From Alphaproteobacteria bacterium (GTDB taxonomy: Bacteria > Pseudomonadota > Alphaproteobacteria > UBA9655), in NCBI GenBank assembly GCA_013815465.1, contig JACDGE010000007.1, positions 3,001 to 67,000 on the forward strand: DNA of 64,000 nucleotides, given 5' to 3'. How positions within the stretch are numbered: position 1 is the stretch's first letter; each line of letters opens with the position of its first letter. Shown piece after piece: positions 42,216 through 43,261 of this stretch. The notes below the pieces were generated by a model. The model searched no databases and had not been told where the DNA came from. It saw only the letters and a program-made list of their open reading frames with translations. The translations under genes and the position numbers were made by a program.

Positions 42216-42259
42216 AAATAAAAAGATAATAAAACTTTTTAACTTATTATTTCTGAAAG

Positions 42260-43213
42260 GTGGATATTAACGTGAGTGATATAACTCTTAAATATTATTT
42301 AGTTGCTTCAGCGATGGCTTTTGCAAGTATTAATCCAGCGTTAAGAGCAATGATTCAAGATGAACTAGAGGTTGATAAAAAAACTATCGTGAGTGAAAAT
42401 TTCAGAGACCGTAACGGTAAGAAATCTGGAGTTTTGATCTTACATTGCGTAGGGCTTGATGATGCTTGGGTTTCTAAAAATTATGGTTTAAACAATACCA
42501 ACGGGGGGCTCGGGGTAAGTGCACACTACTATGTCTCTCAAGAAAGCAAAAAAGTCTACCAGCTCGTGTCTGAAGAATTGAGTGCTTTTCATGCGGGTCC
42601 AAGTGAATGGCGTTCTTTGGCAAAGGAAAATAACCTTCAAGGATTAAATGATATATCTATAGGCATTGAGTTTCAATCTCCCGGATATGCCCAAATTAAG
42701 AGGGAAGCATATTATCCTTATAGCTTCGCGTCCTATAGTGAAGAACAAATAAACTCTGGCATCCTATTGAGCAAACAAATAATCAAAAAACACAATATTA
42801 CTCCAGAAAATGTTGTCTGGCATTCAGATGTGTCCCCTTTGCGTAAAACTGATCCGGGAGCTTTATTTGATGGGAGAAGATTTGCGCAAAATGGTATAGG
42901 TGTTTGGCCTTCTGCAGATCGTCTAGAAGATAATCAATTAGAAACATCGTTATCTACTATTCAAGCGGGTTTAAAGAGTTGGGGTTATCCTCATGTTGAA
43001 ACAACGGATGTTTTTGATAATGCAACTAAGTATGTTTTAACAGCCCATTATATGCATTATTTACCTCAAGAAGTGCAGTGGGAAGACTTCAAAAATCAAG
43101 CGTCAGGCTCGATTTTTGATACTGTACAAGAGTGGAGTGATTTCCCCTACCAAAAGGATGTTCTTGCTATTTCTTTGGAAAATTTGAATAGGAAAAATTT
43201 TGAAAAATTTTAA
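42260..43213 (+). CDS. Periplasmic N-acetylmuramoyl-L-alanine amidase (amidase_2, AmpD/AmiD/PGRP fold) with a PG-binding-like C-terminal region
   Basis: Hydrophobic leader (YYLVASAMAFASINPA). LILHCVG (Zn His), SAHYYV, SAFHAGPSEW, LNDISIGIEFQ, VVWHSDVSPLRKTDPG (Zn His/Asp). C-terminal IQAGLKSWGYP...DNATKYVLTAHYMHYLP. There is no ATG near the start; candidates are GTG 42260 or, better spaced from AAAGGTGG, GTG 42272. Confidence 0.8.
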   Translation: MDINVSDITLKYYLVASAMAFASINPALRAMIQDELEVDKKTIVSENFRDRNGKKSGVLILHCVGLDDAWVSKNYGLNNTNGGLGVSAHYYVSQESKKVYQLVSEELSAFHAGPSEWRSLAKENNLQGLNDISIGIEFQSPGYAQIKREAYYPYSFASYSEEQINSGILLSKQIIKKHNITPENVVWHSDVSPLRKTDPGALFDGRRFAQNGIGVWPSADRLEDNQLETSLSTIQAGLKSWGYPHVETTDVFDNATKYVLTAHYMHYLPQEVQWEDFKNQASGSIFDTVQEWSDFPYQKDVLAISLENLNRKNFEKF

Positions 43214-43261
43214 ATTTAAGCGTAATAACGATAACGAAGCATTAGGAATTAGGAGAACGGC

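Follow-up and report, generated by a model that had tools for sequence, protein, structure and literature searches.

A predicted AmiD/AmpDh2-type amidase gene between rpoB and rpoC in a narrow clade of Holosporales-like Alphaproteobacteria

In the present study, we analyzed a stretch of 64,000 nucleotides (hereafter referred to as the window) from a metagenome-assembled genome (MAG) of an alphaproteobacterium (GenBank assembly GCA_013815465.1, contig JACDGE010000007.1, positions 3,001 to 67,000), in which a cistron of 942 bp for a predicted peptidoglycan amidase is located between rpoB and rpoC. The genes that flank this rpoB-amidase-rpoC arrangement were identified with Pfam as the canonical nusG-rplKAJL ... 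rpsL-rpsG-fusA-tuf set, and the order rplK-rplA-rplJ-rplL upstream of rpoB was also found in related loci. A previous reading of this DNA, made from the letters alone (hereafter, the sequence-only reading), had placed the end of rpoB at 42215 and the start of rpoC at 43262 with a single same-strand open reading frame (ORF) between them, and this layout was confirmed by the ORF calls and NCBIfam matches. The same reading was correct in noting a GTG rather than an ATG start, for which it had listed candidates at 42260 and 42272. Since the GTG at 42272 corresponds in position to the ATG start codons of orthologues, is preceded by the Shine-Dalgarno (SD) sequence AAGGTGGA 7 nt upstream, and yields the same 313-aa protein that is deposited in GenBank (MBA3813438.1, already annotated as an amidase), we chose 42272 and not 42260. 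With this start, the second spacer keeps the previously given length of 48 nt, whereas the first is 56 nt long and not 44 nt. Among the orthologous loci (numbered with L below), a GTG start is shared by L009 and L026, and ATG is used in L001, L002, and L004. The features of the locus are summarized in Table 1.

Table 1. Features of the rpoB-amidase-rpoC locus (positions in the window)
Feature	Position	Strand	Evidence or remark
rplK	35359-35787	+	Pfam Ribosomal_L11
rplA	35793-36479	+	Pfam L1
rplJ	36860-37381	+	Pfam L10
rplL	37541-37921	+	Pfam L12
rpoB, RNA polymerase beta, 1390 aa	38043-42215	+	NCBIfam TIGR02013, 1874 bits; 100% identity to GenBank MBA3813437.1
Spacer 1, 56 nt	42216-42271	+	Weak AU-rich hairpin 42214-42254; SD AAGGTGGA 42257-42264
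Amidase gene, 313 aa, GTG start (alternative GTG 42260, giving 317 aa)	42272-43213	+	Pfam Amidase_2
Predicted Sec signal peptide MSDITLKYYLVASAMAFASINPALRA, followed by MIQDE	42272-42349	+	By inspection: hydropathy profile, conserved motif
Amidase_2 catalytic domain	42431-42859	+	Pfam, homologue alignment, PDB profile search
C-terminal helical domain	42899-43210	+	Profile alignment to AmiD/AmpDh2; Foldseek
Spacer 2, 48 nt	43214-43261	+	rpoC ribosome-binding region TTAGGAGAACGGC at 43249-43261
rpoC, RNA polymerase beta', 1394 aa	43262-47446	+	NCBIfam TIGR02386, 1795 bits
First terminator-like hairpin 3' of rpoB (+ strand)	47582-47598	+	Consensus scan; probable transcription-unit end

Regarding the encoded protein, the sequence-only reading had described a hydrophobic leader, an Amidase_2 core with intact zinc ligands, and a PG-binding-like tail, and these features were borne out by Pfam, the alignment of homologues, and a profile search of the Protein Data Bank (PDB). 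The Pfam Amidase_2 model (PF01510), which had been suggested as a check, matched residues 58-200 with an E-value of 4e-20 and 72.9 bits against a cut-off of 26; the matches of PG_binding_1/2 to the tail (residues 227-262) were weak. When residues are counted from the GTG at 42260 (the 317-aa form), the zinc ligands H62 (codon 42443-45), H188 (42821-23), and D198 (42851-53) are present, as are E137 (42668-70; the Glu of IGIEFQS) and K196 (42845-47). The conservation of the zinc-binding residues, on which the earlier proposal had been made to depend, held in an alignment of 27 homologues, in which H188, D198, and K196 were invariant and H62 and E137 were at least 90% conserved. The zinc ligands of Escherichia coli AmiD are H50, H166, and D176 (PMC5543032); the alignment to AmiD covers H188, D198, and E137, and the counterpart of H62 in the profile search of the PDB is the His of the VLH motif in AmpDh2. 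The protein is an Amidase_2-family amidase with an intact active site.

A profile built from the 27 homologues was run against all PDB sequences and retrieved E. coli AmiD (9e-41), Pseudomonas aeruginosa AmpDh2 (8e-39), AmpDh3 (1e-26), and cytoplasmic AmpD (6e-12), with no peptidoglycan recognition protein (PGRP) at E <= 1e-3. The alignments to AmiD and AmpDh2 extend past the catalytic domain into the C-terminal helical domain, to query residues 273-276, and a family-specific tail of approximately 40 aa after approximately residue 276 is conserved in the homologue alignment (N308, L309, and G283). An AlphaFold2 model of the amidase had a predicted local distance difference test score (pLDDT) of 89.4 and a predicted template modeling score (pTM) of 0.84, with a low-confidence N-terminal helix, and its best Foldseek matches were AmpDh2 (1.8e-15) and AmiD (2.2e-15) over 275-284 columns with target-normalised TM scores of 0.70-0.76; phage endolysins followed at approximately 1e-6 and animal PGRPs at approximately 1e-4. 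The question posed earlier of whether bacterial AmiD or eukaryotic PGRPs are the closest relatives is answered by the profile search and Foldseek in favor of bacterial AmiD/AmpDh2.

By inspection, the predicted leader consists of a Lys, a hydrophobic stretch of approximately 13 residues, and LRA before the putative mature start MIQDE, and most close orthologues likewise have a hydrophobic leader and, after it, an A-M-[DE] motif. The sole Cys of the protein is residue 59 of the 313-aa form, within the catalytic HCVG motif; since the predicted leader contains no Cys, it lacks a lipobox. The product is thus most likely an AmiD/AmpDh2-type N-acetylmuramoyl-L-alanine amidase that depends on zinc and is soluble in the periplasm, for which we infer export from the leader and activity from the active site. 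Bacteriophage T7 lysozyme, which also belongs to Amidase_2, binds T7 RNA polymerase, and the shared fold family together with the suggestive location of the gene may raise the idea that the window protein has a second role in regulating RNA polymerase. We regard this as exceedingly improbable because the protein carries a predicted export leader and a peptidoglycan-binding-type domain, orthologues reside at loci unrelated to the polymerase, and T7 lysozyme was absent from the PDB profile matches at E <= 1e-3.

Similarities to known enzymes are summarized as follows. E. coli AmiD (PDB 2bh7, 3d2y, and 3d2z), the best sequence-profile match and joint best fold match (TM 0.70), has in common with the window protein a His/His/Asp zinc Amidase_2 domain, a C-terminal helical PG-binding-type domain, and export. 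The identity is approximately 30%, and the window protein differs by roughly 20-40 extra conserved C-terminal residues, by its genomic context, and by a leader without Cys, whereas AmiD carries the lipobox L14AGC17 and is a lipoprotein of the outer membrane (PMC5543032). P. aeruginosa AmpDh2 and AmpDh3 (PDB 4bol, 4bpa, and 4bxd) have the same two-domain architecture of periplasmic amidases at an identity of 24-29%; AmpDh2 reaches a TM score of 0.75, and its profile match includes the motif of the first zinc ligand. Cytoplasmic AmpD (PDB 1j3g and 2y28) shares the catalytic fold and zinc site, but is a single domain without a leader and matched more weakly, and the window protein remained below the cut-off of the NCBIfam AmpD equivalog NF008758 (66.4 bits versus 143). 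To judge from its published description, AmiD of Wolbachia wMel (WD1073) resembles the window protein in having a signal peptide and no lipobox (PMC5543032). This zinc-dependent enzyme of an intracellular alphaproteobacterium cleaves peptidoglycan, lipid II, and anhydromuropeptides and has been proposed to limit host recognition (PMC5543032); in contrast to the window gene, no link to rpoBC was reported for it. The window enzyme is an ordinary additional member of the AmiD/AmpDh2 group, and no new mechanism is implied.

The arrangement, rather than the enzyme, is the unusual part. The pair rpoB-rpoC is among the most conserved gene adjacencies in bacteria, and it is on this known conservation that the rarity of the arrangement rests; in full-text literature searches, no account of a bacterial gene separating rpoB from rpoC was encountered. 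The genes surrounding the insertion have the same order as in the canonical rplKAJL-rpoBC (beta) operon. The other known change at this junction is the rpoB-rpoC fusion of Wolbachia and Helicobacter (NCBIfam PRK14844 and PRK09603), which closes the junction, whereas that in the window has been opened by an unrelated cistron.

The arrangement of the window recurs in six further, independent assemblies, which indicates that it is not an assembly artefact. On the contigs of the closest homologues, it was found in L001 (amidase identity of 71% to the window), L002 (59%), L004/L005 (54%), and L009/L010 (60%), and a metagenome scan added only L026 (62%). The orthologues P0004 and P0017 have mis-called N-terminal extensions that correspond to the 3' end of rpoB read out of frame (the end ..GINE and a stop codon, then MNK..), so that both of these genes also abut rpoB. 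rpoB and rpoC are adjacent in "Alphaproteobacteria bacterium 41-28" (RpoB identity of 90% to the window, spacer of 104 nt), in SZAS-37 (89%, 111 nt), where the amidase gene sits after hslU, and in Candidatus Bealeia (78%, 73 nt). The sequence-only reading had treated the arrangement as an insertion and not as a general alphaproteobacterial feature, and this was upheld by the uninterrupted pair in relatives with 88-90% RpoB identity and in Ca. Bealeia; the examination of synteny that it had called for showed the arrangement in one clade, with uninterrupted sister lineages.

An RpoB search retrieved a tight clade with at least 83% identity, next Ca. Bealeia paramacronuclearis (Holosporaceae) at 78%, and then Rhodospirillales-like sequences at approximately 73%. 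In neighbor-joining (NJ) trees, one of 50 RpoB sequences and one of RpoB+RpoC, for which support is given as explicit bipartition counts, all amidase-bearing lineages and L036, a lineage described below, formed one clade with 100% bootstrap support, and SZAS-37 and 41-28 fell in its sister group. A profile scan of the contigs of GTDB representative genomes returned no hit with a single protein, and with an alignment, the one close relative detected was SZAS-37; these scan patterns thus did not retrieve the amidase-bearing subclade from the GTDB representatives. The clade is narrow, uncultured, and allied to early-diverging Holosporaceae (Holosporales-like), and its most parsimonious history is a single insertion at the base followed by one loss.

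With respect to the origin of the gene, the sequence-only reading had proposed horizontal acquisition, partly because the ORF looked more AT-rich than rpoB and rpoC. The compositional contrast itself is real: the amidase ORF has a GC content of 37.3% and 28.7% at third codon positions (GC3), versus 44-45% and 38-39% in rpoB/rpoC. However, against a window mean of 43.9%, several ordinary genes have values of 32.4%, 35.9%, 36.9%, and 37.9%, and the other low-GC genes of the window span 32-38% (GC3 22-32%), so that the recommended GC comparison gave a low value that is matched by other genes; the amidase is at the low end of the window range and is no outlier. All of the nearest amidase homologues (52-73% identity) fall within the narrow clade of the window; those beyond the clade are all at or below 50%, and the next matches (30-43%) are scattered over various bacteria. 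When direct or inverted repeats were sought on both sides of the ORF as a scar of transposition, only short matches at chance level were found, no mobility genes are present at the locus, where the neighbors are rpoB and rpoC, and Rfam detected no RNA family near the insertion.

Orthologues were also found at other addresses. In the MAG SZAS-37 (GCA_018242065.1), in which rpoB-rpoC is uninterrupted, the orthologue P0015 (58%) is located 15 nt 3' of hslVU and faces a gene for an SLT lytic transglycosylase, and the same context was found for P0018 (54%). In these hslU-context loci (L003:4111-8883 and L006:3679-8451), the amidase gene converges on that of the SLT lytic transglycosylase, which has 648 aa. 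P0012 (62%), in L035, is flanked by recG and accA and has a terminator of its own, and a homologue with 43% identity occupies yet another locus. In the amidase NJ tree, the hslU-context orthologues grouped with approximately 80% support in a subgroup without any rpoB-rpoC amidases, and the tree thus does not contradict vertical descent; its deep nodes were weak, and P0020 (from L004) was on a long branch.

The capture of a foreign gene from a distant donor into the rpoBC operon would fit the derived state of the arrangement and the difference of 6-7 GC points from rpoB/rpoC. However, rpoB and rpoC are highly expressed and hence a poor baseline for composition. Other genes in the window are equally AT-rich, neither flanking repeats nor mobility genes were found, every homologue above 50% identity comes from the same clade, and sister lineages have orthologues elsewhere, one of them in a genome whose rpoB-rpoC is uninterrupted. 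We therefore consider acquisition from a distant donor to be highly improbable, and the horizontal origin proposed earlier did not stand. The homologues show that the gene belongs to the lineage, in which it either moved to this site or was substituted by the copy of a close relative.

In the clade as a whole, the amidase gene has no fixed address, also being found after hslVU beside a lytic transglycosylase or between recG and accA. In the hslU-context loci, it likewise seems to be a promoterless passenger at the tail end of a housekeeping operon, and it thus seems to do without its own promoter habitually. The SLT transglycosylase beside it at these loci is the maker of its likely substrate. 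The ORF at 6854-8170 of the window (438 aa), suspected to be hslU, was identified as BamB, and the window holds no hslVU. A 238-aa homologue with 37% identity (P0036) was present in a eukaryotic transcriptome assembly (EukProt), which may be due to symbiont contamination or a transferred gene.

Concerning transcription, a consensus scan detected neither a terminator-like nor a promoter-like site in either spacer, in agreement with the sequence-only reading, which had found the spacers free of an obvious terminator. The same scan found the terminator-like site after rpoC (Table 1) and an 11/12 promoter match before rpsL, with promoter-like sites at 47808 and 48075 preceding this gene (48269). 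The RNA folds of the spacers showed no extra stability over shuffled sequences (z -0.48 for spacer 1 and +2.1 for spacer 2). In orthologous loci, spacer 1 is 14-57 nt, being only 14-19 nt in L009 and L002, and spacer 2 is 30-48 nt, except for 188 nt in L004. The leader of rpoC, TTAGGAGAACGRC, is identical in loci with and without the amidase gene, indicating that the insertion took place 5' of the rpoC ribosome-binding site, which remained undamaged. Since rpoC needs to be transcribed, promoter-like and terminator-like sites are lacking, and spacer 1 has only 14-19 nt in some loci, the amidase gene is most likely a promoterless internal cistron, a passenger of the beta operon. The earlier claim of a cistron that is probably co-transcribed with rpoB and rpoC, being on the same strand with short spacers and without terminator or promoter matches, is therefore retained.

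It is conceivable that the amidase gene instead forms an independent transcription unit, or that its promoter drives rpoC, such that rpoB and rpoC are no longer co-transcribed. Weak 9/12 promoter-like matches inside the ORF at 42372 and 42756, the AU-rich hairpin in spacer 1, and the poor agreement of alphaproteobacterial promoters with the E. coli consensus may be cited for this. However, such matches were at chance level (24 found versus 19.3 +/- 5 expected), no terminator-like site occurs from rpoB to the end of rpoC, and the shortest first spacers leave no room for a promoter, and we consider an independent unit to be improbable.

Some observations on the spacers of relatives may be added. 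The uninterrupted rpoB-rpoC spacers L032:10174-10277, L033:8051-8161, and L034:10171-10243 form stable hairpins (z -2.1, -4.2, and -2.8, respectively), that of Bealeia being GC-rich and followed by UGAUUUUG, and the window spacers beside the amidase gene have no stable fold. The hairpins of the relatives could be a processing or attenuation element that was lost on insertion.

Evidence for selection was obtained from ratios of nonsynonymous to synonymous substitution rates (dN/dS, Nei-Gojobori). For the amidase gene, dN/dS was 0.22 between the window and L001 (dS 0.81) and 0.18 between the hslU-context pair L003 and L006; the values for rpoB and rpoC were 0.02-0.04. These estimates indicate purifying selection on the amidase gene, of the same order in both contexts. 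They also bear on the notion that the ORF is a decaying remnant, a fragment of a phage endolysin, or an assembly chimera, for which the matches to PHROG endolysin and amidase families (1e-18 to 1e-15) and the derivation of the window from a MAG might be adduced. A full-length ORF with an intact active site and a dN/dS of 0.22, no phage genes nearby, and the recurrence of the arrangement in six other independent assemblies make such an explanation hardly credible.

The fate of the gene was not uniform. Between L004 (6001-7121, P0020) and L001, the amidases share 55.7% identity although RpoB shares 96.5%, and dN/dS was 0.31; in L004, the first zinc ligand H62 is replaced by V, and the enlarged second spacer contains a GC-rich repeat. 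This pattern suggests relaxed or shifted selection. Furthermore, the prediction that every member of the clade carries the amidase gene failed for L036, the RpoB of which shares 93% identity with that of the window. Its rpoB-rpoC spacer of 251 nt (L036:10174-10424) is largely a near-perfect palindrome with a stem of approximately 50 bp (RNA fold -133.6 kcal/mol, z -12), the same beginning of which was found in an independent assembly (L037, 5555-5617), and the 88-aa ORF called across it is spurious. Searches of this spacer with blastx and blastn revealed no amidase remnant, and only the rpoC leader and the 3' end of rpoB matched. L036 was nested in the group {window, L001, L004, L036} with 100% bipartition support, and the amidase-bearing lineages without L036 were monophyletic in 0/500 bootstraps; according to these trees, it is most parsimonious that L036 lost the amidase gene from rpoB-rpoC secondarily. 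The palindrome is possibly an element similar to a miniature inverted-repeat transposable element (MITE) that replaced the gene. The idea that this palindrome and the hairpins of L032/L033 are copies of one element was rejected on comparison.

Taken together, we consider it likely that the locus carries a native periplasmic amidase of the AmiD/AmpDh2 type, the gene of which was relocated once into the rpoB-rpoC junction and persists there as a promoterless internal cistron under purifying selection. According to this scenario, the gene would have entered the rpoB-rpoC spacer a single time, in the ancestor of the subclade of the window, at a point 5' of the rpoC ribosome-binding site, which was preserved. 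It would be transcribed as part of the rplJL-rpoB-rpoC mRNA, with translation from a GTG or ATG start behind an SD sequence of its own, such that the supply of the amidase may track that of RNA polymerase and be constitutive and coupled to the growth rate. [quoted passage not shown] The gene was kept intact in most descendants, has evolved faster in L004, and was removed from the site in L036.

Several points weigh against this scenario. Due to the weak deep nodes of the amidase tree, a move within the genome is not distinguishable from replacement by the copy of a close relative. The promoter scan used a sigma-70 consensus, which fits alphaproteobacterial promoters poorly, and an internal promoter for rpoC or for the amidase gene could escape it. 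The loss in L036 and the fast evolution of L004 with its H62V replacement indicate that the position is not strictly maintained, and they speak against a strong advantage of the location. On the other hand, retention across the clade argues for a position in rpoBC that is at least tolerated.

The position may also be adaptive, as the sequence-only reading had suggested, an explanation compatible with the relocation of a native gene: expression from the growth-rate-controlled beta operon would provide constant trimming of muropeptides and thereby hide a host-associated cell from peptidoglycan sensing by its host. The retention of the arrangement over approximately 10% RpoB divergence under purifying selection, the affinity of the clade to Ca. 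Bealeia (a symbiont of protists), the presence of an F-box-like ORF elsewhere in the window, and the precedent of Wolbachia AmiD (PMC5543032) are consistent with this. For the window itself, the rationale of host evasion would derive only from the relatedness to Holosporaceae and the F-box-like ORF. However, the gene was lost from the site in L036, the first zinc ligand was replaced in L004, the amidase of sister lineages does without the rpoBC context, and the host status of Holosporaceae members represented only by MAGs is not established (PMC11909080), and we regard an adaptive position as unlikely, albeit worth considering. It is rather doubtful that the location was selected in the specific sense that the beta operon ties the output of the amidase to that of RNA polymerase at a constant ratio, with no means of silencing the amidase alone, and that the resulting constitutive trimming of muropeptides, in step with growth, conceals a protist-associated bacterium from its host; if true, an essential operon would be serving as the expression chassis of a host-interaction enzyme.

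Irrespective of its cause, the arrangement shows that the rpoB-rpoC junction can accept an unrelated gene for a presumably functional and exported enzyme and lose it again, and the amidase gene has been carried through a radiation of roughly 10% RpoB divergence. It thus represents a natural experiment on the tolerance of an essential, stoichiometry-sensitive operon to an extra cistron, and may serve as an entry point to the study of how uncultured Holosporales-like bacteria turn over their peptidoglycan.

Other features of the window deserve a brief mention. Between a tRNA gene (29761-29834) and secE/nusG, the window contains approximately 4.7 kb of variable DNA (29835-34600); in SZAS-37, tuf and secE are within approximately 550 nt, with no called gene between them. 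This region includes the ORF with the F-box-like domain (32153-32593; PF12937, 29.6 bits, above the cut-off), a minus-strand ORF with weak CHAP/NlpC-P60 matches (30364-31497), and a minus-strand ORF with a GC content of 32% (33006-33641). A product of the F-box type would represent an effector of eukaryotic character, which is a hint of association with a host. A GC-rich element of approximately 33 nt (..CCCATGTTCCCCGCTTTTGCGAGGACGGG..) occurs in intergenic DNA of the window at 36785-36817 and 28308-28340 (minus strand) and also in the enlarged amidase-rpoC spacer of L004 (7046-7083), and looks like a small family of repeats similar to repetitive extragenic palindromic (REP) sequences. The two tuf copies of the window (28496-29686 and 51232-52422) differ at 1 of 1191 nt, and their flanks diverge immediately; near-identical copies of this kind are the usual signature of tuf gene conversion.

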